Assembly: GCA_025061115.1 (NCBI GenBank) | Contig: JANZKC010000001.1 | Location: 779,366 to 843,365, forward strand | Reading direction: 5' to 3' | Source of the DNA: Candidatus Culexmicrobium cathedralense | GTDB lineage: Archaea; Thermoproteota; Methanomethylicia; Culexarchaeales; Culexmicrobiaceae | DNA length: 64,000 bases | Shown: positions 17,600-30,175 of the stretch, piece by piece | How positions within the stretch are numbered: position 1 is the stretch's first letter | Layout: each line of letters starts with the position of its first letter | Notes under the pieces: model-generated | Databases searched by the model: none | What the model was told of the DNA's origin: nothing | What the model saw: only the letters and a program-made list of their open reading frames with translations | Position numbers and translations under genes: made by a program

Positions 17600-18754
17600 A
17601 TGGGCGGTGTAGCTGTGACTGCAAAATATAATATTCGCGTTCACTTTGAAGTAGAGGGTATTGTTGAAAAGCCAGATGTTATCGGGGCAATATTTGGTCA
17701 AACAGAAGGATTGTTAGGAGACGAGCTTGATCTAAGGGAGCTGCAGAGAACTGGAAGAATCGGCAGAATACAAGTCCACTTAGAGACGAAGGGAGGAAAA
17801 ACTTCGGGAGCCGTCATTATACCGTCAAGCTTGGGCAGAGTGGAAACAGCACTAATCGCAGCAGCCATTGAAACAATAGACAAAGTGGGACCATGCACTG
17901 CGAAATTCACACTTAAGGATATAGAGGATCTAAGAGAAGAGAAGAGAAGGTGGGTAATTGAGCGCGCAAAAGAAATATTGCTTAAATGGGAACAGGAAAA
18001 AATTCCTGAAACTAAAGAGCTCATTGAAAACCTACTTCGTGAAATTAGAGTTGCAGAAATCATAAAGTTTGGAGATGAAGGATTGCCTGCAGGGCCGGAT
18101 GTCCCCCACGAGGACACAATAATTATCGTAGAGGGTAGAGCTGATGTGTTAAATCTATTGAAACACGGCTATAGAAACGCCATAGCAATTGAAGGAACAT
18201 CGATACCAAAAACAATTATTGAACTTAGCAAGAAAAAGAAAACCATAGCCTTCGTAGATGGAGATAGGGCAGGAGAACTAATTTTAAAGGAGCTACTTCA
18301 GGTAGCAGATATCGATTACATTGCTCGCGCTCCACCTGGGAAAGAAGTAGAAGAATTAACTGCTAAGGAGATAGTCAAGTGCTTATCAAGCTTAACTCCT
18401 GCAGGCCAGTTTCTATCTCAGTTAGAAAAAGCCAAACAAAAAGCTAGAGTAACATATGTACCGCAAATTCCTGATCATGCCATTAGAAAGGCCAAGGAAA
18501 TCATAGGAACACTAAAGGCAGTAATATATGATAAAAGGTGGAAAGCAATTAAGGAAATTTCAGTTAGGGATCTAGCAGAACAACTACAGAAAATTGAAAA
18601 CGTCTATGCAATAGTATTTGACGGAATAATAACACAACGACTAGTTGACATCGCAGGGGAAAAAGGAGTAAACTTAATTGTTGGAGCAAGAATTGGAAGC
18701 ATAACTAAACGGCCAGCAACACTCACACTACTAACATTCGAAAACATAATTTAA
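17600..18754 (+). CDS. dnaG: Archaeal DnaG (exosome-associated, primase-like)
   Basis: DVIGAIFGQTEGLLG, IVEGRADV, DGDRAG TOPRIM motifs. Confidence 0.95.
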   Translation: MGGVAVTAKYNIRVHFEVEGIVEKPDVIGAIFGQTEGLLGDELDLRELQRTGRIGRIQVHLETKGGKTSGAVIIPSSLGRVETALIAAAIETIDKVGPCTAKFTLKDIEDLREEKRRWVIERAKEILLKWEQEKIPETKELIENLLREIRVAEIIKFGDEGLPAGPDVPHEDTIIIVEGRADVLNLLKHGYRNAIAIEGTSIPKTIIELSKKKKTIAFVDGDRAGELILKELLQVADIDYIARAPPGKEVEELTAKEIVKCLSSLTPAGQFLSQLEKAKQKARVTYVPQIPDHAIRKAKEIIGTLKAVIYDKRWKAIKEISVRDLAEQLQKIENVYAIVFDGIITQRLVDIAGEKGVNLIVGARIGSITKRPATLTLLTFENII

Positions 18755-18814: not shown

Positions 18815-20065
18815 TTGGAAAATGAGAGAGTTAAAAAGTTATTTGATGATTTTAAGTGTGCAGCTGAAACCCTCAAAGAGAAAGCTGTTGAGAAAGTGCA
18901 TATAATTTATCATGATGACGCAGATGGAGTGACAGCAGCAGCCATATTAAAAGCATCACTTGAAAGAAGGCAAATTCAAGTTAAAATGATATGCATTGAA
19001 AAGCTCTACCCAGAAATCATCGAAAAACTACATAGCGAGAAAGGCAAAGTCTACATTTATGCAGATATCGGAGCACCTCATGCAGATAGGATATCCAGCG
19101 TAAACAAGGGAAGAAATCTAACTATAATACTAGATCACCACGACACCTTACTCTCATCAGATCCAGCAGTGATCAACTTGGATCCAGAGCTTTATGGAAT
19201 TAGCGGAGAGGAGGAAGCTAGCGGCGCAACTGTTTGCTACCTCTTCTCTAAAATTCTCTCTGAAAGAAATGTTGACTTAGCGCATTTAGCAGTAATTGGC
19301 TCATCAGAGATACCAGGCCCAGTTAGAGGCTTAAACTTGATAGCTTTAGAAGATGCTTTAAAGGTCGGAACTATCCAAGTGAAGCAAGTAAATGAAGAAA
19401 AGAAGTATTTAGTTACAGCTTATGGGAGGCCTGAGCCTAGAGAGAAGATAGCATCTAAATTGACAGCCATGGCAGCAATTGGATACTACATAGGCGGCCC
19501 TAAAAGGGCAGTAAATGCTTGTCTATCAGGTTTTTCGGAGAGAGACTTGCAATTTATTAAGGAGCTCGATCAACAGCGCAGGAAAGTAAATCGACAACTC
19601 ATAGCAAAACTCAAACATTCAGGCATTCGACAAGCTAGATTTGTCCAGTGGTTTCACGCCTACGACGCCTACAAGGGCATGGGAGTAAAAACCATAGGTA
19701 CCTTCTGTAGCTACTTATCATTTCAAAAGTGGATTAACCAAGGGAAGTATTTGATCGGCTTCATGTACATGTCCAGAGTCATACCTGAATTAGGAGAATT
19801 AAGTAGGGATTACGTTAAATTTTCGGCAAGAGTCCCTAAACAATTAGCTCTAGCAATAAGGGATGGACGAATGCCACCTATATCAACAGCACTATCAGAA
19901 GCTGCCAAGGTATTTGGAGGATTCGCGGATGGGCATGACGTTGCAGCATCGGGGGTAATACCTAGGGGTTTCGAAAAAGAGTTCATCAAGAAATTAGATG
20001 AAATCATTTCAAGATGTGCCGCAAGTTCATCGCCGTTTAAACCAAAAGTCCAGCGTTACAGTTGA
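18815..20065 (+). CDS. DHH-family phosphoesterase (RecJ/Cdc45-like)
   Basis: HDDADG, YADIG, LDHH, GHDVAASG. Confidence 0.85.
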   Translation: MENERVKKLFDDFKCAAETLKEKAVEKVHIIYHDDADGVTAAAILKASLERRQIQVKMICIEKLYPEIIEKLHSEKGKVYIYADIGAPHADRISSVNKGRNLTIILDHHDTLLSSDPAVINLDPELYGISGEEEASGATVCYLFSKILSERNVDLAHLAVIGSSEIPGPVRGLNLIALEDALKVGTIQVKQVNEEKKYLVTAYGRPEPREKIASKLTAMAAIGYYIGGPKRAVNACLSGFSERDLQFIKELDQQRRKVNRQLIAKLKHSGIRQARFVQWFHAYDAYKGMGVKTIGTFCSYLSFQKWINQGKYLIGFMYMSRVIPELGELSRDYVKFSARVPKQLALAIRDGRMPPISTALSEAAKVFGGFADGHDVAASGVIPRGFEKEFIKKLDEIISRCAASSSPFKPKVQRYS

Positions 20066-22414
20066 AGGAGGCTTAAGTATAGAATCTTCTGTGAAGCCGA
20101 AGACTGACAATACGCGTAAAGCTGATGGCAAGATCTGCTTGGAGACATAGTAATCTAAGTCTAAGTCATCATAATCGGCCATAAAGTAAGGCTTGGCTCT
20201 ATCGGAAAGCCTCTTCGATGTTCCTTTAATTATCACGAAGCCAACCTTATCTCCAACTTCAAGGGAATACCCTGCGCTTAGTAGCATTCTTGCAACTCTT
20301 ACGTGGGGAGCGTCAACTTCATACTCGTTAAGGGATTTTGCCAGTGTTTTCCAGATTATTAGCTTCTCAAAGGGAACTCGCTTAGACCTCAAATCATCAA
20401 CTACTTTTCTAACATATTCTGCAGCTGCGCTTGGGGATCTTCGCTTTAAAATTATTTCAATTACTTTGAGCTGCACTTCTTGTGCAAGTTCGCACCAGTC
20501 TCCACGTACAGCCTCGAAACCGATAACCTCAACACGCCCATCTTGAAGGAGACCGGCGTACCGCTTAGCAGCTTCAGTGAATATGCATGCTTCGTAAATT
20601 TTATCAATTTTAATTTCCAGCCCAATTTCTCTCTCAACTTCTGCTATGAAGGCATCTACTTTTTCAGGAACATATTTGACAAATAAGGAATCAGTATCCC
20701 CATAAATTATTCGGAGTGAAATTCTTCTTGCAATGTCTATGGCCTCTTTAATTGTTTCTCTACCGAAAGCTGCAGTAGCTTCTGCACAGGGTTTAACATA
20801 CCATCTAGCTCCAAGCCATCCAGTGTATCCATAGCATGCATTAGCAATGACTTTGATCGCCTTTTGACGGTTATCGAGGATCAGGTATTCTGGAGAGGCG
20901 ATATCCAAAAGCTTCATTTGCTCCTTGATCTGCTTTCTCAAGGCAAGCAACTTTTCTAAAACGCGCTTAAAGAACCCTGGCGGGCTTTTCCTAAATCTAT
21001 GCCCAACCTCGGGAGCGATGAAACATTCATCAGGAGATAGCGATTCATCCGGAGGAATATAGGTGTCGGGACTTATGTTGTACTTTATCATCAAGCTTGG
21101 ATACATAGCTGAGAAATCTATCACCGCGATATTCTCATGCAAGCCTTTTATCGGCTTTAAAACTAATGCGCCGCGATATGGAACGTATGGTCTTTCAACT
21201 CTATTTGGAATTAGCTCATTTTCTTTGAAAGCTTGGCGAATTAAGAACCACTCCACACGAAAGCCAACTGGAGCTGCCAAGACTTGGTCAAGAGGAATGC
21301 CAGTGACACTTGAAAGCTGAATTGCGAAAGGCAGTGCCTTCTCTGCAATTTTTAACGTCAACTCAGCAGCTTCCATCGAATGCTTAAGTAGGTCTGGACG
21401 CCTACTTTGGTCGCCCCAATATTGATATACCCAGGGCGGTTTAAGCAGGAATTGCTCTTCTTTAGGCTTTACATTCAGGTAGTCAGCCACATTTCCTAGA
21501 GTCTTTATTTTAATAGCATAGAGATCCTCTGCATAATCAAGCATGTCAACATTAGCTCGCCCTGCAATAGATATGTGGCCATATATGCTTGTTTGTGGTT
21601 CTGAGAATTCCCTGCTGAGCGGAATGCGGGCATTCAGGCTTTTTGCCCTAGCTAGAATGTATGGCCAAACAAACCTATTAGAGTTGTAACCAACAATGAC
21701 GTCAGGATTCACTTCAACAATATAACTTGCAAAATTCTCTAGAAGAGTCCTCTCATCAAGCTCTTCGAGAGTGAATTGCGCTTTTTCACCGGTATTCGTA
21801 ACTACCGTAATAACTACGATGGGATCGCTGTGCGCCTTTGGAGAGCCTTTGGGACTAAAATACTCAACATCGAAGGAAAGAATTTTTAAATCAGGCATAT
21901 CTCGACGTTCAATTGGTTTGGGTTCACTTTTCATTTCATAAATTGCATCTACACGTATGTTTTCTTTATTATCGAGAGGAGCCACTTCGGCAGAGTGCCA
22001 AGCACAGGGGTAAACGCCTTTATCAACCATATATCTCATATAAAATCGTATATCAGCTTCAAGGACATCCTTTACACCGGAAATTTTTGATATTTTTTCC
22101 TTTAAAAGGGACAGTGCAGTAGGCAACAAGCATTCCACTTTAAGTGCGGTTACTGGCTTGCCGAAAAAGAATTTGTTAACTTGCTGAATGCTTAATACGG
22201 GGGCAGTGGGACTGCTCAATTTTTTGATGTTGTTAGTGATGGACTCAAGAAAGCTGTTGTCTTTCGGTAAGACATAGAAATACGGTCTAAAAGTCCGGTC
22301 TAATATCAAAACGCGCTTACCATCATCTGTTATGCTCCAAAAACAAATGATAGGCACATTATCTTGAATGGCATACGTTACATCTAATGGCCAAAAGGTG
22401 AGGATCTTCCTCAC
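20027..22414 (-). CDS. polB: Family B DNA polymerase (B3-type); proofreading motifs degenerate
   Basis: DFSAMYPS, K..AN..YGY, YGDTDS, KRY intact; ExoII reads YNSNRFVWPY and ExoIII reads HSMEA. Confidence 0.93.
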   Translation of the reverse strand: MRKILTFWPLDVTYAIQDNVPIICFWSITDDGKRVLILDRTFRPYFYVLPKDNSFLESITNNIKKLSSPTAPVLSIQQVNKFFFGKPVTALKVECLLPTALSLLKEKISKISGVKDVLEADIRFYMRYMVDKGVYPCAWHSAEVAPLDNKENIRVDAIYEMKSEPKPIERRDMPDLKILSFDVEYFSPKGSPKAHSDPIVVITVVTNTGEKAQFTLEELDERTLLENFASYIVEVNPDVIVGYNSNRFVWPYILARAKSLNARIPLSREFSEPQTSIYGHISIAGRANVDMLDYAEDLYAIKIKTLGNVADYLNVKPKEEQFLLKPPWVYQYWGDQSRRPDLLKHSMEAAELTLKIAEKALPFAIQLSSVTGIPLDQVLAAPVGFRVEWFLIRQAFKENELIPNRVERPYVPYRGALVLKPIKGLHENIAVIDFSAMYPSLMIKYNISPDTYIPPDESLSPDECFIAPEVGHRFRKSPPGFFKRVLEKLLALRKQIKEQMKLLDIASPEYLILDNRQKAIKVIANACYGYTGWLGARWYVKPCAEATAAFGRETIKEAIDIARRISLRIIYGDTDSLFVKYVPEKVDAFIAEVEREIGLEIKIDKIYEACIFTEAAKRYAGLLQDGRVEVIGFEAVRGDWCELAQEVQLKVIEIILKRRSPSAAAEYVRKVVDDLRSKRVPFEKLIIWKTLAKSLNEYEVDAPHVRVARMLLSAGYSLEVGDKVGFVIIKGTSKRLSDRAKPYFMADYDDLDLDYYVSKQILPSALRVLSVFGFTEDSILKPPSTVTLDFWFKRR

Positions 22415-23009: not shown

Positions 23010-23678
23010 ATGAGAGTGAGATGGCTTGGGCATGCTGGTTTTGATATAGAGATCTTAGGGAGACGAATATTAATAGATCCATGGCTCACAGGAAACCCTA
23101 TGGCCAAGAATAAACCCGAAGAATTTAAGAAAGTGGACGTTATTCTCGTTACCCACGACCATGGCGACCACTTAGGTGATGCCATAGAGATTGCCAAAAA
23201 CACAGGCGCAACCTTTGTTGGCATTTACGAGTTAAGCCAATATGCACTATCACAGGGAGTTAAGGAAGCCGTGGGAATGAACATTGGAGGTTCAACAGTA
23301 GTAAAAGACTTGGAAGTAATAATGGTCCCTGCATTTCACTCATGCGAAAAAGGCGCTCCTGTAGGCTTTGTAGTTCAGCATGGAGCTGAAAGCGTTTATC
23401 ACGCAGGAGATACCTCAGTTTTTAGTGACATGAAACTCATAGGGGAACTATACAAACCTAAGCTGGCTCTGCTTCCTATAGGAAGCCACTTCACAATGGG
23501 ACCAAAAGAGGCAGCTAAAGCTGTAGAGCTAATAAAGCCAAAGGTGGTGATTCCAATGCATTATAATACATTTCCAGTGATAAGACAAGATCCTCATGAA
23601 TTCGAAGGACTAGTTAAGGAAGTTGCTCCCGAAGTAAGGGTAATTATAGCGGAAGTTGGGAAGTGGATTGAAATTTAG
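23010..23678 (+). CDS. Metallo-beta-lactamase-fold hydrolase (UPF0173)
   Basis: WLGHA, THDHGDH, YHAGDT, PIG..FTM, IPMHY. Confidence 0.9.
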   Translation: MRVRWLGHAGFDIEILGRRILIDPWLTGNPMAKNKPEEFKKVDVILVTHDHGDHLGDAIEIAKNTGATFVGIYELSQYALSQGVKEAVGMNIGGSTVVKDLEVIMVPAFHSCEKGAPVGFVVQHGAESVYHAGDTSVFSDMKLIGELYKPKLALLPIGSHFTMGPKEAAKAVELIKPKVVIPMHYNTFPVIRQDPHEFEGLVKEVAPEVRVIIAEVGKWIEI

Positions 23679-23727: not shown

Positions 23728-25245
23728 ATGAGAATAATCAACAATCTCGGCGACATCGAAGTAATGATTCTTGAAAAACTGAAGGAAGCGGGAGGTAAAC
23801 GTAAACTAGAAGTTCTAGCAAGGGAACTCGCAAAAACTACATCGACAATAGCTTCGATCATTGAGAACTTAGCTAAGAAAGGAGCTGTAGCAGTTGTTAA
23901 AAAAAAGCTGATATCGGTTTCACTGACTAATGAAGGTTTAAAGTATGCTAGGGATGGTTTACCGGAAAGAAAAGTATTGCAGAAATTAATCGAAATGGGA
24001 GGAAGAGCCCCAATAAGGAGATTAGCATCAAATAGAAAGATTGGCGAGGAGATAAAAGTTGCAATTGGCTGGGCTAAGAAAAAAGGGTGGATAAAAATAG
24101 AGAAGAAAGGAGCAGAGCAGATAGTACAAGTGCTAATTGAAAATCCACCAGAGGGATATGACGAGAAAATACTTAAGGAGCTTAGCCAGTCAAGTGGAAG
24201 CATTTTCATTAATAAATTAGACTATGAGCTTTATAGTGCGCTTCAAGATCTAAAAACTAGGAAACTTGTAGTGATCAAAGAGAAAACTGATGCAATAATT
24301 TTCCTTACAAGTGAGGGGAAAGAAGTGTTAGCTCACGCAGGTGAAAAGCAGGTTATAAACGTACTTGCGCGCGAACACATAATAAAGGGCACATGGAGAA
24401 AATGCTATTTCAAACAATACAATGTAACTGCCCAGCCACCAAGAATCTATCCCGGCAAACAGCACTTCCTTAACGAAATAATAGACAGGGTAAGGCAAAC
24501 ATTGTTATTCATGGGGTTTGAGGAATGTTTTGGGAAATTTATAGAGTTGGAGTTTTGGAGTTTTGACATGCTATTTTACGCTCAGGATCATCCTTCAAGA
24601 AGCTTAAGCGAAGTTTATTGGATTAAAAAACCAGAAGAAGGCAACATATTAGATAAAGAGCTAATTGATAAAGTGAAAGCCGTCCATGAACATGGATGGA
24701 TTACAGGTTCAAGAGGGTGGGGAGGTAAATGGAGCTTACAGCGTTCTAAAAAGCTTATCTTAAGCATAGAACCATTACCCCCCATAATCAGGTATCTATT
24801 CGCCCGCAAGAAAACACCCATAAAGGCATTTTGTATCTTAAGGACATTTAAACGAGAAATGGCTGATGCCGATGTTCCCATGGAAAGCATAAAGCTAGGC
24901 GGCATGTATTGTGATGAAGACGCAAATATGAGCAAGCTAATTGGAATAATTAAGAAAATACTGCTAGAGCTAGAAATAAGTGAAGTAAAAGTGAGGCCAA
25001 CGTACTTGTCGTATGCGGAGCCCAGCATTGAAGTTAGGATAAAGCAAGACAAGGAAAATTGGCTTTCATGTGCGGTTGGAGGTTTTCTCAGACCTGAAAT
25101 TGGGAAAGTACTTGATCTGGAGATGCCAGCTGTAATTTGGAGCATGAATTTAAATGATATTGCTATTGCTTGCTTAAATTTGAGCGGGTATCGAGAAATT
25201 TACGCTAGTGACCTTAATGTTTTAAGAAGGTTAGGCGCGAAGTGA
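23728..25245 (+). CDS. pheS: Phenylalanyl-tRNA synthetase alpha-like protein, catalytic motifs degenerate
   Basis: Archaeal PheS architecture (GLPE, QDHP.R, VHEHG...SRGW, EPS, RPE), but motif 2, motif 3 and the FPF loop are substituted. Confidence 0.8.
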   Translation: MRIINNLGDIEVMILEKLKEAGGKRKLEVLARELAKTTSTIASIIENLAKKGAVAVVKKKLISVSLTNEGLKYARDGLPERKVLQKLIEMGGRAPIRRLASNRKIGEEIKVAIGWAKKKGWIKIEKKGAEQIVQVLIENPPEGYDEKILKELSQSSGSIFINKLDYELYSALQDLKTRKLVVIKEKTDAIIFLTSEGKEVLAHAGEKQVINVLAREHIIKGTWRKCYFKQYNVTAQPPRIYPGKQHFLNEIIDRVRQTLLFMGFEECFGKFIELEFWSFDMLFYAQDHPSRSLSEVYWIKKPEEGNILDKELIDKVKAVHEHGWITGSRGWGGKWSLQRSKKLILSIEPLPPIIRYLFARKKTPIKAFCILRTFKREMADADVPMESIKLGGMYCDEDANMSKLIGIIKKILLELEISEVKVRPTYLSYAEPSIEVRIKQDKENWLSCAVGGFLRPEIGKVLDLEMPAVIWSMNLNDIAIACLNLSGYREIYASDLNVLRRLGAK

Positions 25246-25251
25246 TTTTTC

Positions 25252-26928
25252 ATGATACCAATAACAGTAAGTCTGAAAGATCTGCAGTCGTTAATTGGTG
25301 AAGAACTAGGCGTAAATGAGATCTTAAAATTATTGGCGATGACTAAGTGTGAAATAAAGCATGTCAAAGGAGATTTGATAGAGCTTATGGTTCCACTTGA
25401 TAGACCGGATCTTTTTTCAGTGGAGGGAGTCAGCAGAGCTCTAAGATGCATCATGGGAACTTATAGGAAGCCCATAATTGACAAGAATGAGAAATGCATA
25501 TGTCAAGTTTACGTAGATAGTGAAGTTCTCGACATAAGACCTTACATTGCTTCTGCAGTGATTAGAGAAGTAAAACTGAGTTGCAAAGCACTAAGACAGA
25601 TGACACAGCTCAGGAGGAAATTGCATGAAACATACTGCAGAGGAAAGCTTCTTGCTTCGATAGAAATTCACGACTACAACTTAACTACGCCACCTCTTAC
25701 ATACTCAGTTAAAGGAGAAGAAGACATAACATTAAAACCACGCGGAGAAGGAAGAAAATTAAGGTTAACTGAAATTCTGAGGAGAGAACCTTGGAAAAAG
25801 CATGCTTATCTACTATTCGGCTACAATCGGCTTCCAGTAATGGTTGATTCTAAAGGGGAAGTACTATCCGTTCCACCAATTATTGAAAGTGATGAAACAA
25901 AAATCACTGCGAATTCATCGGACATACTTCTCATAGTCACTGGAATAAATGAAAGAGTTGTTGAAGAAGCTTTGGAGATAGTTGCGGCAAACCTCTTGGA
26001 GAGGGGAGGAATTTTAAAGCGGGTTGAAATACGGTATCCTGACACTTTGTTGATTACTCCTAAAATGGAACCTAGAGAAATCATCATCGAGCCGCAACAG
26101 GTGGAGAAAGTCCTTGGAGTTAAAATTGACTTAAACAAGTTAATGGCTCTTTTAGTTAAAAGCGGATTTGAAGTAAAAAGCGAAAATGGAAAAGTGAAGG
26201 TCGGCGTCCCACCCTACCGCGCTGATGTGATTCATGAAATCGACGTAATAGAGGATATAGGAATAGTTTATGGCTTCGATAACATAAAAGGAGGGCCGCT
26301 CAGCGTTCTCGCGCCAGGAAAGGCATACCCCATGAACAAATTGGCAATGAGAGCAAGAAGGATCATGACCGCCTTGGGATTCCAAGAAATAATAACATGC
26401 GTCTTATCCGACAGGAAGGATTTATTAAATAAAATGCTTTTAAAAGAAGAGAAAATAATTGAAGTAATAAATCCCATAATTCGAAAATATTCTGCTATAA
26501 GGAACTGGCTAATGCCAAAACTTTTAGAATTCCTAAGCAATAACAAGCATGCACCATATCCTCAAAAGATCTTTGAAATTGGAGAAGTAGCATTAATTTG
26601 TGAGGGGGATGAGGAAACAGGAGTAAAGTGCACCTTAAAGCTAGCAGCGGCAATAACAGATTATAAGGCAGGGTATGGAGACATCCAGGCGACACTATTT
26701 GCACTCCTTGAAAATCTGCAAATTCCATTTAAGCTCGAGCCAACATACCATCCAAGCTTCATCCGTGGTAGGACAGCCCAAATAAGAATTCATAATAGCG
26801 TAGTCGGAATAATTGGTGAAATCTATCCAGAAGTTTTAGAAAACTTCAAGTTGGAAAATCCGGTGGCAGCATTTGAAATGGATTTAGGGAAAATTGCTGC
26901 ATGCTATCCACAGGAAAGCCGGAAATGA
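25252..26928 (+). CDS. pheT: Phenylalanyl-tRNA synthetase beta-like protein
   Basis: RPDLFSVEG..R, KLHET, PPII, VPPYRAD..H..D..ED, YPQKIFE.G, PSFI.GR. Confidence 0.85.
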   Translation: MIPITVSLKDLQSLIGEELGVNEILKLLAMTKCEIKHVKGDLIELMVPLDRPDLFSVEGVSRALRCIMGTYRKPIIDKNEKCICQVYVDSEVLDIRPYIASAVIREVKLSCKALRQMTQLRRKLHETYCRGKLLASIEIHDYNLTTPPLTYSVKGEEDITLKPRGEGRKLRLTEILRREPWKKHAYLLFGYNRLPVMVDSKGEVLSVPPIIESDETKITANSSDILLIVTGINERVVEEALEIVAANLLERGGILKRVEIRYPDTLLITPKMEPREIIIEPQQVEKVLGVKIDLNKLMALLVKSGFEVKSENGKVKVGVPPYRADVIHEIDVIEDIGIVYGFDNIKGGPLSVLAPGKAYPMNKLAMRARRIMTALGFQEIITCVLSDRKDLLNKMLLKEEKIIEVINPIIRKYSAIRNWLMPKLLEFLSNNKHAPYPQKIFEIGEVALICEGDEETGVKCTLKLAAAITDYKAGYGDIQATLFALLENLQIPFKLEPTYHPSFIRGRTAQIRIHNSVVGIIGEIYPEVLENFKLENPVAAFEMDLGKIAACYPQESRK

Positions 26929-26941
26929 GCAAACTCTTAGG

Positions 26942-27035
26942 TGGTGGGGCCGCGGAGATTTGAACTCCGGTCACGGGGACCCATTGGGGGAACAGCGTTC
27001 TAACCCCGCAGCCTTCCAGGCTAGCCTACGGCCCC
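26942..27035 (-). tRNA. tRNA-Pro(TGG) with 18-nt intron at 33/34 (26984-27001); CCA encoded
   Basis: GGGG-TTA-GAAC-gct-GTTC-CCCC-AAT relaxed BHB; spliced arm CGGGG-TTTGGGT-CCCCG. Confidence 0.88.
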
Positions 27036-27165: not shown

Positions 27166-27876
27166 ATGTCAATTGAAGAAGAATTAGCTAGGAAAATTGC
27201 TGGAGAAATAGTCCTCTCAGATAGACCTTGGATAACTATGAAAAAGTGGAGAGAATTATTTAATATTACGCAAGTCGAATTGGCTGGCGAAATGAATATC
27301 TCTCCATCGGTAATCAGCGATTATGAAGGGGGTAGGCGACGCTCTCCAGGAGCTAAGTTCGTTAAGCGATTCGTAGAAGCAATAATAAGTATAGACAAAA
27401 ATCGCGGAAGCCCAGTGTTAAGAGAATTTTCCAGAATTATGAGCATGCCTACTGAAGCAATTTTAGATATGAAAGAATTCTCTGAGGCAGTATCTATCAA
27501 AAGGCTCTGCCAAGTAATTAATGCAGAAATCATCGCTTGTTCACATTTAGGTGAAAGAAAGATTTTCGGATATACGGTCGTTGACAGCATAAGGTGCATT
27601 GAAACTCTTTCAGGGGCAGATTTCATGAAGCTCATGGGCACTACTTCCATGAGAGCATTAATATTCACAAAGGTTTCAAGAGGAAGGTCGCCAATGGTGG
27701 CTGTTAGAGTGAATCCAATAAAGCCAGCAGCAGTAATTATTCACGGAACAGATAAGGTCGACTCTTTAGCCATAAAGCTAGCTAGAATAGAGCAAATTCC
27801 ACTAGCAGTTTCTCGCATGCCCACTATTGAAAAACTCCTTCAAGCCTTGAAAAGCTTTAGCTTGAGCATAGAATAA
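27166..27876 (+). CDS. Xre-HTH transcriptional regulator (COG1709-like)
   Basis: IAGEIVLS, WRELF, SVISDYE.GRR.SPG, GYTVVDS, RALIFT.V..GRSPMVA. Confidence 0.88.
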   Translation: MSIEEELARKIAGEIVLSDRPWITMKKWRELFNITQVELAGEMNISPSVISDYEGGRRRSPGAKFVKRFVEAIISIDKNRGSPVLREFSRIMSMPTEAILDMKEFSEAVSIKRLCQVINAEIIACSHLGERKIFGYTVVDSIRCIETLSGADFMKLMGTTSMRALIFTKVSRGRSPMVAVRVNPIKPAAVIIHGTDKVDSLAIKLARIEQIPLAVSRMPTIEKLLQALKSFSLSIE

Positions 27877-27928: not shown

Positions 27929-30175
27929 ACGCACTGTTCAAGGTTTTCCACTGAAAAAATATTAGGAGCCCTGTCCAACAGCACCAGAATCGAAATCCTC
28001 AAGAAGTTAAGTAGAAGCGATGAGCTGAGCTTCACCGAGTTAATGCAAGAACTCAACATGTCTCCTCGCAGCGACGCGGGAAAATTTGGCTATCATCTGA
28101 AGACGCTCGTCGAATCCGGGCTCGTGTCGACCGTTCCTGCTTCAGGGAAATATGCGCTTACAGATATTGGAAAAATCATGGCCGAGCTCATTTGGGAAAT
28201 TGAAGAAATTAGCAGGAAGAAATCTAAGCGCATGCTTGTTAGAACCTCAAGTTTAACCATGGAGCCATTTGAGAGAAGAAAAATCGTTGAAGCATTAATA
28301 CGTGAAGCAAATGCTCCTAGAAGAATAGCGGAAGCCATAGCCAAAGAAGCTGAGGAGAGGCTTTTAAAGCTCGAAATAAGCTATTTGACTGCACCCCTAA
28401 TCAGAGAGTTTGTGAATGCAATATTGCTGGAGCAAGGGTTAGAGGATTATCGGCACTCAATGACAAGACTGGGTTTGCCGGTCTATGATGTAGAGAAGCT
28501 ACTTGAAGAAGAACATTACATCCCAACTTTTCCAGACAAAGTGCATGCAGCAACGGGAGACGCAGTAATGAGCGAATATGCTTTAATCAAGCAGCTTCCA
28601 AGGAGAGTGTCTGATGCACATTTAGCCGGTATGATACATATATGCAATACCAATTATTGGATGCTTCGTCCAGCTACAATTCATCATGATCTGTCATTTT
28701 TCTTGAAGAAAGGTTTTGAAGTGAGAGACGCAGGTCTAACGCTTGCATTTAGCGGTCCACCTAAAAGCCTTCGAGCTGCACTTCTCTTTGCAATTAGGCT
28801 TGCCCATCTAATGCAGAGCAATTTGGCGGTAGGTCAGTTAATAGATAACGTAAACTACATATTAGCTCCATACGCGTCAAACTTGAAGATAGAGGAAATG
28901 AAAAAGGCAGTTCGTGAAGCACTATTATATTTAAATCAAACTCTGACTTCAAGAGGAAGTGTAGTTCCACTTGCATTTGGCTTAACGGTATCTCCACCAA
29001 AGTACATTGAAGAAAATTATAATGACTACATAGATGAAGCCATATCCTTATTCAAGGCGATTTTACAGGCAATGTACGAAGGAGACTTCGCAAAAAAACC
29101 GTTCATCAGCCCACTCCCCATAATTAAGATTTGCGGAAGAATGTTAAGCGGAAAAGAAGATTATGAAGAAATTTTGGAGGAAGTTTGTAAGCTAACTTCA
29201 AAGTGGGCTACACCTTACTTCATAAACTTGAATGCTGAATGGCAAACCAGAGAAGTAAGTTATGGGTGGGATTTATCAAGGTTAGAGGCAAAGAAGAGTG
29301 AAGATGCAAAGTATCTATTGACGCAGACTGGGTGCTTAGATACTGTTATCATAAATTTGCCGAGAATTGCTTTAGAGGCAAATGGTGATGATGAAGAATT
29401 CTTCTCAAAACTTAAAGGTTCGATCTCTCTTGCTGTGGAAACACTGAATGCTAAACGCGAGTCAATTGATAAACAACTGGAGAAGGGGCATCTATCGCTC
29501 CTGAACATACAGTCGGGAGGAGTACCATACTACCATCTGGAAAATACTACCTGCAATATCGGCTATATAGGGATGCCCGAGGCTGTAAAAATTCACGTTG
29601 GAACATGGGTACATGAAGATGTTAATGCGCTATCATTTGCTGAAAAAATCGTGGATTTCATGTTAAGAGAAATAAGAAAGAGGAGAGGACGCTGGACAAT
29701 AACTTGCATATCTCTTGAAAACGCGAGTGAAAGGCTCTTAAGAACAGACATTGCGAGATTTGGTCTTAAAAGAGTTCAGGAGGAGGTTGGTGGAGAGCTT
29801 CATTACACCCACAATATGCACGTACCAATGCACGCGCAAGTGCCGCTTAGTAGGAGAATAGCCATTGAAAGCAGATTTCAAAAGAAACTTAATGGGGGAC
29901 ATGGCTTAAACATATATCTTCGAGAGCCCATGCCAGATGCAGATTACCTCATAAAATGCCTGAGAAGCATTGCAACACGTACAGATTTAGGAGCCTTTAC
30001 ACTCACTAGGGACTGGACGTACTGTAAATGGTGTGGGAAATTATTCGGCGGCTTTCAAGAGAAATGCCTAAATTGTGGAAGATCTTTGAAGAATATAATA
30101 CATTACACCAAGATGGTAAATGTATATGAAGTTTTGATTGAAAGACGCATTAGAAGAGTGAAATATGCAATCTAA
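27929..30175 (+). CDS. ArsR-type HTH + ATP-cone + inactive class III RNR (NrdD)-like fusion protein
   Basis: Frame is open back to 27926 (ALSNSTRIEILKKL...FTEL...GKFGYHL); ATP cone VRTS...EPFERRKI; NrdD-like DAHLAG.IH, INLPRIA and Zn ribbon; no RxxGY motif. Confidence 0.8.
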   Translation, partial: THCSRFSTEKILGALSNSTRIEILKKLSRSDELSFTELMQELNMSPRSDAGKFGYHLKTLVESGLVSTVPASGKYALTDIGKIMAELIWEIEEISRKKSKRMLVRTSSLTMEPFERRKIVEALIREANAPRRIAEAIAKEAEERLLKLEISYLTAPLIREFVNAILLEQGLEDYRHSMTRLGLPVYDVEKLLEEEHYIPTFPDKVHAATGDAVMSEYALIKQLPRRVSDAHLAGMIHICNTNYWMLRPATIHHDLSFFLKKGFEVRDAGLTLAFSGPPKSLRAALLFAIRLAHLMQSNLAVGQLIDNVNYILAPYASNLKIEEMKKAVREALLYLNQTLTSRGSVVPLAFGLTVSPPKYIEENYNDYIDEAISLFKAILQAMYEGDFAKKPFISPLPIIKICGRMLSGKEDYEEILEEVCKLTSKWATPYFINLNAEWQTREVSYGWDLSRLEAKKSEDAKYLLTQTGCLDTVIINLPRIALEANGDDEEFFSKLKGSISLAVETLNAKRESIDKQLEKGHLSLLNIQSGGVPYYHLENTTCNIGYIGMPEAVKIHVGTWVHEDVNALSFAEKIVDFMLREIRKRRGRWTITCISLENASERLLRTDIARFGLKRVQEEVGGELHYTHNMHVPMHAQVPLSRRIAIESRFQKKLNGGHGLNIYLREPMPDADYLIKCLRSIATRTDLGAFTLTRDWTYCKWCGKLFGGFQEKCLNCGRSLKNIIHYTKMVNVYEVLIERRIRRVKYAI

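Follow-up and report, generated by a model that had tools for sequence, protein, structure and literature searches.

The locus described here raises the question of what purpose is served by a complete pair of phenylalanyl-tRNA synthetase (PheRS) genes whose catalytic motifs have degenerated. It lies in a stretch of 64,000 nucleotides from Candidatus Culexmicrobium cathedralense, an uncultured archaeon of hydrothermal habitats that belongs to the class Methanomethylicia (contig JANZKC010000001.1), which we will refer to as the window and to which the positions given below refer (source genome G000, contig C1). The locus is comprised of a pheS-like gene (alpha'; positions 23728..25245, + strand), a complete open reading frame (ORF) of 505 aa with degenerate catalytic motifs, and a pheT-like gene (beta'; 25252..26928, + strand), an ORF of 558 aa that starts 6 nt past the alpha' stop codon. 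An earlier examination of the letters without database searches (the sequence-only reading) had described the pair as intact but catalytically rewired, and had proposed that it is a retained paralog and that a canonical pheST must exist elsewhere in the genome. An ORF check agrees that both genes are full length and unbroken. The results presented below suggest that this second, complete pheS-pheT operon no longer encodes a synthetase and that its products may instead form a complex which binds a ligand but does not catalyse.

The Degenerate Pair and the Canonical PheRS of the Same Genome

Both proteins were recognized by the full-length models for the archaeal PheRS subunits, and the catalytic and editing features of these subunits were not found in them. 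On NF003210, alpha' scored 396.3 bits (cut-off 350), matching model positions 3–491 of 496, and on PF01409 it scored 148.8 bits; beta' scored 444.9 bits on TIGR00471 (cut-off 282.65). As both proteins pass the NCBIfam equivalog cut-offs, annotation pipelines based upon NCBIfam are expected to label them as subunits of an active PheRS. With the Pfam models, the class II core of alpha' and the B5 domain (85.6 bits) and catalytic-like module (CLM) of beta' score well, and PF17759 matches beta' with 134.7 bits, whereas B3_4 of beta' (24.0 vs. 29.3 bits) and PheRS_DBD3 of alpha' (17.5 vs. 26.6 bits) were below their gathering scores and the B1 domain of beta' was also under its cut-off. The nearest solved relatives of both proteins are the human and other eukaryotic cytosolic PheRS subunits.

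The canonical pheST that had been predicted to exist elsewhere is present on contig C2 of the same genome (G000:C2:438625-441745), where the two proteins score 552.7 and 526.3 bits and every motif is intact. The identity between the degenerate proteins and these resident canonical proteins is 31% for alpha and 38% for beta. The genome assembly (1.98 Mb in 25 contigs) has a completeness of 99.99 and an estimated contamination of 7.65%. That the second copy stems from contamination was ruled out, because the two contigs concerned, C1 with 843 kb and C2 with 531 kb, show a tetranucleotide correlation of 0.997 and the pair is syntenic in six genomes. In the same genome, the sole tRNA-Phe(GAA) call made by ARAGORN contains a 637-nt intron at position 33 (G000:C2:258860-259571), and no such call is made without the intron option; this may represent either a real long-intron or split arrangement, or an artefact.

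Loss of the Class II Active Site in alpha'

The motifs of alpha' were aligned with those of the genome's own canonical alpha and of 40 further alphas of the class, and a position was considered conserved when it is at least 90% conserved in the canonical proteins (48 canonical alphas and 35 canonical betas). All of the motif substitutions that the sequence-only reading had named for alpha' (SIEPL, motif 2, YLSYAEP and IWSMNLND) were reproduced in this alignment. At residues 343–357 (24754..24798, +), alpha' has LILSIEPLPPIIRYL where the canonical sequence is L.LRSQTT.vS.R.L; LSIEPL is found at the LRSQTT site, and the changes R346->S and T350->L affect two sites that are 100% conserved in the 48 canonical alphas. 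The motif 2 region (residues 368–395; 24829..24912, +) reads FCILRTFKRE...VPMESIKLGG vs. F.I.RNYRPD...THLPEFNQCEG in the canonical proteins. Here K375 occupies the Arg site and is directly followed by an Arg (R376), the H, F, Q, and G of the loop are lost (V383, S387, and K389 being the substitutes at the H/F/Q sites) and E386 is kept. The Phe-pocket element (residues 426–432; 25003..25023, +) is YLSYAEP vs. canonical YFPFTEP, and in the motif 3 region (residues 468–481; 25129..25170, +) IWSMNLND replaces AWGLGIDR, with D477 at the Arg site and the two glycines of G.G changed to S and N. The Arg sites of motifs 2 and 3, which are K375 and D477 in alpha', are both 100% conserved in the 48 canonical alphas. 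The elements that mark the Phe pocket and the acceptor contacts (R.QTT, FPF-TEP and the motif 2 loop H/F/Q) were all lacking in alpha'.

A similar loss is seen in the related divergent copies described below, although the individual substitutes differ. The motif 3 Arg is missing in 7/7 of the divergent copies that cover this region and the motif 2 Arg is retained in 3/7; the residue at the motif 2 Arg site is K, R, R, R, E or L, and at that of motif 3 it is D, N, K, L, E or H. Within the class II core of alpha, 19 of the 74 conserved sites are retained in at least 5 of 6 divergent copies, and 45/74 in the window copy. The residues that are invariant in all six alpha' proteins include H246, G263, F264, E266, W277, L282, E386, G452, and P432. 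P0002, a full-length alpha' ortholog from the same genus (64% identity), is 66% identical to the window protein in the degenerate core and 60% in the N-terminus. As the active-site substitutes differ from genome to genome, these changes point to loss of the sites rather than to the formation of a new conserved pocket. The catalytic elements have been replaced, as the sequence-only reading held, but its term "rewired" is too strong for substitutes that vary by genome.

Degeneration of the Editing Domain and Retention of Other Modules

The B3/B4 (editing) domain of beta' (residues 81–270; 25492..26061, +) is likewise degenerate. The alignment shows QLRRKLHETYCRGKLLASIE vs. canonical MQE.LH..GR.R.KVAIG, PPIIES vs. 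PPIINS, and LLIVTG vs. F.ELTG, and the conserved residues Q121, E122, R132, K134, G138, and N212, as well as the acidic residue before TG, are substituted; the drift of the editing region that had been read from the letters was in this manner reproduced. Only 7/28 conserved sites of this domain are retained in at least 4 of 5 divergent betas, compared with 19/28 in the window copy. A Tyr-Cys pair (Y128-C129) is invariant in 5/5 divergent betas, at a place where the canonical betas mostly have Gly. The Cys, however, does not constitute a new catalytic signature, as the human beta also has Cys at this position.

The other modules of the two proteins have fared better. The B1 domain of beta retains 5/8 conserved sites across the divergent clade and 6/8 in the window copy, the B5 domain (beta' residues 271–345; 26062..26286, +) retains 7/9 and 9/9, respectively, and the CLM (B6/7; residues 346–558; 26287..26925, +), which forms the main predicted contact with alpha', retains 14/20 and 17/20. 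The N-terminal module of alpha' (residues 1–205; 23728..24342, +) consists of three winged-helix-like domains predicted with a predicted local distance difference test (pLDDT) score of ~80–89, and 9/15 of its conserved sites are retained in at least 5 of 6 divergent copies and 14/15 in the window copy. The persistence of this module and of B5 had also been noticed from the letters. In archaeal and eukaryal PheRS, the N-terminal module of alpha contacts tRNA. Its net charge is +12 to +21 in 6/6 divergent copies, whereas in 48 canonical alphas it has a median of +2 and ranges from -5 to +16. Judged by these site counts, the decay appears to be domain-specific, with two active sites eroded and the interface, B5, CLM, and N-terminal modules retained.

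The best Foldseek match of the AlphaFold model of alpha' is full-length human PheRS alpha (3l4g_C; E 4.1e-25, 504 columns). When the core of alpha' (residues 226–505) and beta' were submitted to complex prediction, a score of 0.88 was obtained vs. 0.02 for the best of 3 controls; the mark used in these predictions is attained by 58/80 solved complexes and by 2/110 mismatched pairs. The runs for this complex agreed in at least 95% of contacts, with a partner pLDDT of 88. As PheRS complexes have been solved, a prediction of this kind may reproduce the solved structures and indicates likeness to the PheRS heterodimer rather than binding by these particular copies. The clade-invariant residues of alpha' are enriched at the predicted interface (10/18 vs. 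93/280 overall; p = 0.037).

Distribution and Selective Constraint

The degenerate pair was found together with a canonical pair in 6/6 genomes from two sister families (f1 and f2) of the order, for which 12 species genomes were compared, and in all six genomes alpha' is followed by beta'. In the third family (f3), no second copy was found in the five genomes with a match, and a sixth genome, which is 74% complete, had no match whatsoever. Among 62 genomes of the class, full-length degenerate copies were limited to f1 and f2, the other second matches being either contig fragments of canonical genes or matches of ~72–88 bits in ORFs of ~530 aa. Extra partial canonical pheS/pheT sequences occur on very short contigs in a few genomes (G015:C17, 1246 bp, and fragments in G047 and G056); these resemble the products of split assemblies or mixed strains rather than genuine second copies.

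Very few further members were recovered from larger databases. In a word-indexed search of 5.8 billion proteins, the only degenerate proteins among the best 53 of 109 matches were the window protein and P0002. When a profile of the six alpha' proteins was searched against 1.84 billion representatives, the scores of the first five proteins (771 to 512 bits) were set apart by a gap from those that followed (377 bits). Of the 149 matches listed besides the window's own, five lacked the catalytic residues, namely the copies from G003, G004, and G005 together with P0113, which is 60% identical to the G002 copy, and P0116, which is 37.5% identical to the G005 copy; three borderline profile matches were truncated canonical proteins. 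The degenerate clade comprises about eight known sequences. At least about half of the sampled words of the stretch were present in four sequencing runs from four studies, all of them labelled as hydrothermal vent metagenomes (two possible-source runs were excluded).

The degenerate genes are intact and are evolving under constraint in these relatives. All 11 complete degenerate ORFs in the six genomes are open (11/11), one alpha' being cut by a contig end, and the further full-length database proteins P0002 and P0116 are open as well. The proportions of non-synonymous (pN) and synonymous (pS) differences were obtained from Nei-Gojobori counts (NG86 only). Between G000 and G001, alpha' (329 codons) has pN 0.188 and pS 0.731, compared with 0.076 and 0.547 for canonical alpha; between G003 and G004, pN is 0.439 and 0.428 and pS 0.781 and 0.717 for alpha' and beta', respectively, the canonical pN values being 0.150 and 0.181. 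In every comparison pN is far under pS and is 2.4–2.9 times the canonical value (2.7–4 times as Jukes-Cantor-corrected dN), although, because dS is saturated in most comparisons, these figures are rough bounds.

Additional evidence comes from the contigs of an independent run, which cover 30/30 bins of the stretch and differ from it by 9 substitutions, of which 5 are synonymous and 4 are not, and by no indel. A synonymous share of 5/9 is based upon few events, yet it is above the ~1 in 4 expected without constraint. Runs X4, X5, and X7 cover 25, 24, and 11 of the 30 depth bins, respectively. The effective number of codons (ENC) is 50.6 for alpha' and 50.3 for beta', with 45–57 for neighbouring genes, and the canonical pair shows a stronger bias, with values of 42.5 and 40.6. 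Neither frameshifts or stop codons nor a dN/dS near 1, by which a pseudogene is recognized, were observed, and the combination of lost catalytic residues, a retained fold and purifying selection is that of a pseudoenzyme. Neutral decay in relatives, which would have spoken for a recent pseudogene, was accordingly not seen, the complete copies being intact and syntenic with pN well under pS.

Evolutionary Origin of the Pair

The six alpha' proteins formed a single clade with an SH-like approximate likelihood-ratio test (SH-aLRT) value of 100, within which the branches are long (up to 3.0 changes per column). A second alpha tree of 40 rows was constructed without the long-branch sequences of G003, G004, and G005, the truncated G001 sequence and 11 near-duplicates, and with P0002 added. 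In this tree alpha' joined the alphas of families f4, f5, f7, and f8 (SH-aLRT 99), while the resident canonical alphas of f1, f2, f3, and f6 branched with the outgroups. In the beta tree (37 rows, without G003, G004, and G005), beta' was placed beside f4, f5, and f7 (SH-aLRT 89). By the approximately unbiased (AU) test, a grouping of alpha' with the resident canonical alphas was rejected (delta lnL 32.8, p = 0.005), and so was the corresponding grouping for beta (delta lnL 29.6, p = 0.007). These values are to be read with the facts that the groups were named after the first tree had been seen, that long branches are present and that the trees are unrooted. Every degenerate alpha' also scores higher against an f7 alpha than against the resident alpha (e.g., 249 vs. 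175 and 159 vs. 102 bits).

The AU tests on both subunits reject the pair as a recent duplicate of the resident canonical genes. From the trees it appears that the degenerate pair and the resident working copy descend from separate PheRS lineages, and the degenerate pair could be either a native copy that was displaced by an acquired pheST or one that was acquired from another family of the class. The working PheRS of f1, f2, f3, and f6 is of the FMPSDHPAR / FTIDRNYRPD type, and in both trees it groups with those of Aenigmatarchaeota, Hydrothermarchaeum and unclassified archaea and not with those of the other families of the class. A horizontal replacement of this essential synthetase in f1, f2, f3, and f6 is possible, the unrooted trees being compatible with either direction.

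Gene Neighbourhood

The gene order common to the six genomes is a family B DNA polymerase (-), an acetyltransferase (-), a metallo-beta-lactamase (MBL)-fold hydrolase (+), alpha', beta', a helix-turn-helix (HTH) protein and an anaerobic ribonucleotide reductase (RNR)-like protein. The flanking genes are 56–87% identical to those in the window, and alpha' and beta' are 28–40% identical outside the genus. The MBL-fold hydrolase (23010..23678, +; Lactamase_B_2, 106.9 bits) is the upstream neighbour of the pair in the six genomes, and its presence in the same orientation, pointed out from the letters, is confirmed by Pfam. However, as this gene is found in 51/62 genomes of the class, including ones without the pair and the f3 genomes, where it is located elsewhere, the hydrolase is a widespread housekeeping gene and was rejected as a specific partner.

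In the corresponding slot of f3, the acetyltransferase gene directly adjoins the HTH-RNR-PyrB genes, and the MBL, alpha', and beta' genes are missing. When the vacant slot in the f3 and f6 genomes was searched with tblastn, no remnants of the pair were detected (best E 0.21). The 1.5-kb flanks of the canonical pheST loci of other families contain no MBL, HTH, acetyltransferase or RNR homologue, which is uninformative on the ancestral state of the slot. The f3 slot also lacks a DHH-family-like gene (18815-20065) and the gene for the family B DNA polymerase (20027-22414, -), and a homologue of the gene at window positions 17600-18751 abuts the acetyltransferase gene there (L080 and L081); the whole region from this homologue up to the HTH gene differs between the families. 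The HTH_3 protein (27166-27876, +) precedes the anaerobic-RNR-like gene (28043-30175, +) also in genomes that lack the pair. It is highly conserved, with an identity of 68–81% across f1 and f2 and about 59–60% in f3, and it may be a dedicated regulator of the RNR-like gene.

A tRNA gene that is interrupted by an 18-nt intron and encodes its own CCA end is located on the opposite strand 14 nt downstream of beta' (26942-27035, -). ARAGORN leaves its anticodon undefined without introns and calls tRNA-Pro(AGG) with a non-canonical splice position when introns are allowed; another splice register would yield the anticodon UGG, and Rfam gives only a weak tmRNA-clan match (30.8 bits). This tRNA was considered as a cognate of the pair and rejected, being Pro-like and not Phe.

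Interpretation and Alternative Explanations

Based upon the sequence comparisons and predictions described above, alpha' and beta' probably constitute a self-assembling alpha'beta' pseudo-PheRS that binds its ligand, most plausibly tRNA or another RNA, and does not catalyse; we hold this view with moderate confidence. The second pheS-pheT operon, though complete, would no longer encode a synthetase, and charging would be carried out by the canonical pheST. The two proteins would still assemble into a PheRS-like complex, as is suggested by the retention of the motif 1/interface residues, B5, and CLM and by the complex prediction. The likeliest ligand would be tRNA(Phe) or some other RNA, to which the complex would bind by means of the N-terminal module of alpha', a module that is retained and is more basic than usual, and the complex may serve as a sequestering, sensing or chaperoning factor. 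The proposal of a retained pseudo-synthetase paralog, made from the letters, is in this form supported by the canonical copy elsewhere in the genome and by the lack of neutral decay. A more specific possibility, that the degenerate pair is the original class-typical PheRS, displaced by an acquired pheST and kept as an entire enzyme over the time span of the families to act as a non-catalytic sensor, sequestrator or chaperone that binds uncharged or immature tRNA(Phe), is tentative and we regard it as rather doubtful.

A number of observations weigh against a binding, non-catalytic complex. The window copy has eroded less than any other member of its clade and carries Lys-Arg at the motif 2 Arg site, where FRRE is found in the ortholog P0002 of the same genus, and some nucleotide binding or deacylation may therefore persist in this genus. 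The case for RNA binding is built from domain retention and charge, the complex prediction is subject to the qualification given with it, and the AlphaFold model of alpha' is a moderate one (mean pLDDT 68, with residues 269–335 below 50 and a low motif 2 loop), obtained from a 6-row alignment. The invariant residues of beta' are not enriched at the predicted interface (10/53 vs. 94/558; p = 0.40). Additionally, the saturation of dS limits the selection estimates, and the raised amino-acid rate (2.5–4 times the canonical) also fits a weakly constrained protein. All of the compared genomes are metagenome-assembled, and that of the window carries the estimated contamination noted above. Lastly, no RNA runs containing the region were listed, although this is uninformative either way.

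If the pair has kept an activity of a changed kind, one that does without the class II ATP site, it could be a trans-editing deacylase acting through beta' B3/B4 with alpha' as the tRNA scaffold, or it could act upon another small ligand. The 19/28 editing-domain sites retained in the window copy, the invariant Y128-C129 and the 66% identity of the degenerate core within the genus are all consistent with this, and editing domains that occur by themselves as well as complete synthetases that work in trans are established (PMC4787780 and PMC5388404). However, across the clade only 7/28 editing sites and 19/74 core sites survive, the substitutes are variable with no new conserved pocket visible, the Pfam score for B3_4 is under its cut-off and the Cys at beta' position 129 is shared with human beta; we consider such an activity unlikely. 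It is also conceivable that alpha' or beta' mixes with the canonical subunits and modulates the real PheRS in a regulatory or dominant-negative, prozyme-like manner rather than forming a complex of its own. Cross-pairing would be facilitated by the interface residues G263, F264, E266, W277, and L282, which are clade-invariant and the same as in canonical alpha, and there are precedents in duplicated ThrRS that forms hetero-oligomers (excerpt of PMC4787780) and in dead paralogs that activate enzymes (cf. PMC5201418 and PMC3663545). Nonetheless, both subunits have been kept as one operon in 6/6 genomes, which would be needless if one of them docks on a canonical partner, and self-pairing of alpha' and beta' is predicted with high confidence, and hence we also think this arrangement improbable.

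A redundant synthetase, displaced or horizontally acquired, could likewise be decaying slowly as a functionless relic that has not yet been interrupted, and the elevated amino-acid rate, the branches of up to 3.0 changes per column, the unconserved active-site substitutes, the unbiased codon usage and the fact that f3 has lost the pair or never had it would all be expected in such a case. Against this stand the 11/11 complete ORFs, P0002 and P0116, which have remained open despite divergence to 28–40% identity, pN values of 0.19–0.44 vs. pS values of 0.72–0.78, a decay that is limited to two active sites while B5, CLM, and the interface are conserved, the fixed synteny and the absence of indels in the independent assembly, all of which make a relic quite improbable. 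That the pair is still an active PheRS, or a synthetase for some other amino acid with an unorthodox active site, we find very hard to credit. Both proteins are over the NCBIfam equivalog cut-offs and K375-R376 could in principle substitute for the motif 2 Arg (cf. FRRE in P0002), but the motif 3 Arg is missing in 7/7 copies, G.G, the motif 2 loop H/F/Q and the TT element are lost, and the substitutes are not conserved between genomes. Moreover, the tRNA predictions gave no extra or unusual candidate, the tRNA gene next to the pair being Pro-like, and the SepRS model discussed below is far from being matched.

Relation to Known Systems

In its genes, gene order, lengths, and domain set (the DNA-binding-fold domains and class II core of alpha, and B1, B3/4, B5, and CLM of beta), the pair corresponds to the canonical archaeal/eukaryal (alpha-beta)2 PheRS (human 3l4g; P. 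horikoshii beta fragment 2cxi). In contrast to the canonical enzyme, alpha'beta' lacks the motif 3 Arg, TT, FPF and most of the editing residues, has Lys for the motif 2 Arg (in the window copy), coexists with a canonical copy and evolves 2.5–4 times faster. SepRS, an archaeal synthetase derived from PheRS alpha, is also homologous to the PheRS alpha core. However, SepRS has kept its class II catalytic residues and works without a beta subunit, and the identity of alpha' as SepRS was rejected, its score on TIGR00470 being 18.2 bits vs. a cut-off of 380.65. No SepRS was found in the window's genome, where the sepS model matches canonical alpha only (63.7 bits). A second PheRS-alpha-like match (~72–88 bits, in an ORF of ~530 aa) is present in most f4–f9 genomes, including f6 (e.g., G013:C1:1022772-1023248 and G026:C1:900647-901120), and in none of f1–f3; these matches are presumably SepRS.

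The closest parallel in kind is provided by pseudoenzymes derived from aminoacyl-tRNA synthetases such as HisZ, a class II synthetase paralog that is kept for a binding-based, non-translational role as the regulatory subunit of ATP phosphoribosyltransferase; the excerpted text of PMC5388404 describes the HisZ paralogs of HisRS as having no aminoacylation activity. HisZ consists of one catalytic domain, has an enzyme partner that is known and is widely distributed, whereas alpha'beta' is a whole two-subunit synthetase including the editing domain, is known from only about eight sequences and has only housekeeping genes as conserved neighbours. PheRS-subunit duplicates outside translation are also known in eukaryotes, such as the fast-evolving toxins of Caenorhabditis tropicalis derived from fars-3 (excerpt of PMC12680543), and human LRRC47 (6zxd_k) matches beta' residues 85–241 (E 5.7e-17). 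These derive from a single subunit, PheRS beta, are in part chimeric and act in toxin-antidote systems or in association with the ribosome, while alpha'beta' is archaeal, has both subunits full length and shows no evident antidote-like partner. Paralogs of aminoacyl-tRNA synthetases derived from horizontal gene transfer are described as common in the excerpts of PMC5388404 and PMC4787780. The duplicated or acquired copies in prokaryotes (resistance or stress isoforms) resemble the pair in having a different origin from the resident copy, but they remain active synthetases whereas alpha' has lost its catalytic residues. Full-text literature searches did not bring up any description of a degenerate PheRS alpha/beta pair in archaea, although supplementary gene tables could list the duplicate; the main text of PMC9723716, on geothermal archaea related to this class, does not contain "phenylalan," "tRNA synthetase," or "tRNA ligase."

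Significance of the Degenerate Pair

Paralogs of synthetases that have departed from translation are recognized as a source of new functions, and examples include HisZ, trans-editing factors and signalling fragments. To our knowledge, those described so far are single domains or single subunits. The pair reported here differs in being a complete heteromeric synthetase minus its synthetic and proofreading sites, in which the assembly modules and the putative RNA-binding module appear to be under selection beside a working copy of different derivation. Should the tentative view hold that this is the displaced original PheRS of the lineage, it would be an archaeal counterpart of HisZ and of the HisRS-like domain of GCN2, made from an entire two-subunit synthetase, and the displacement would have been caught with both copies present. 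We know of no sensor of uncharged tRNA that has been established in archaea, and if alpha'beta' binds tRNA(Phe) without charging it, it would represent a new type of archaeal tRNA-directed regulator. The pair also amounts to a natural experiment in which the parts of PheRS that its structure requires can be told apart from those required for catalysis.

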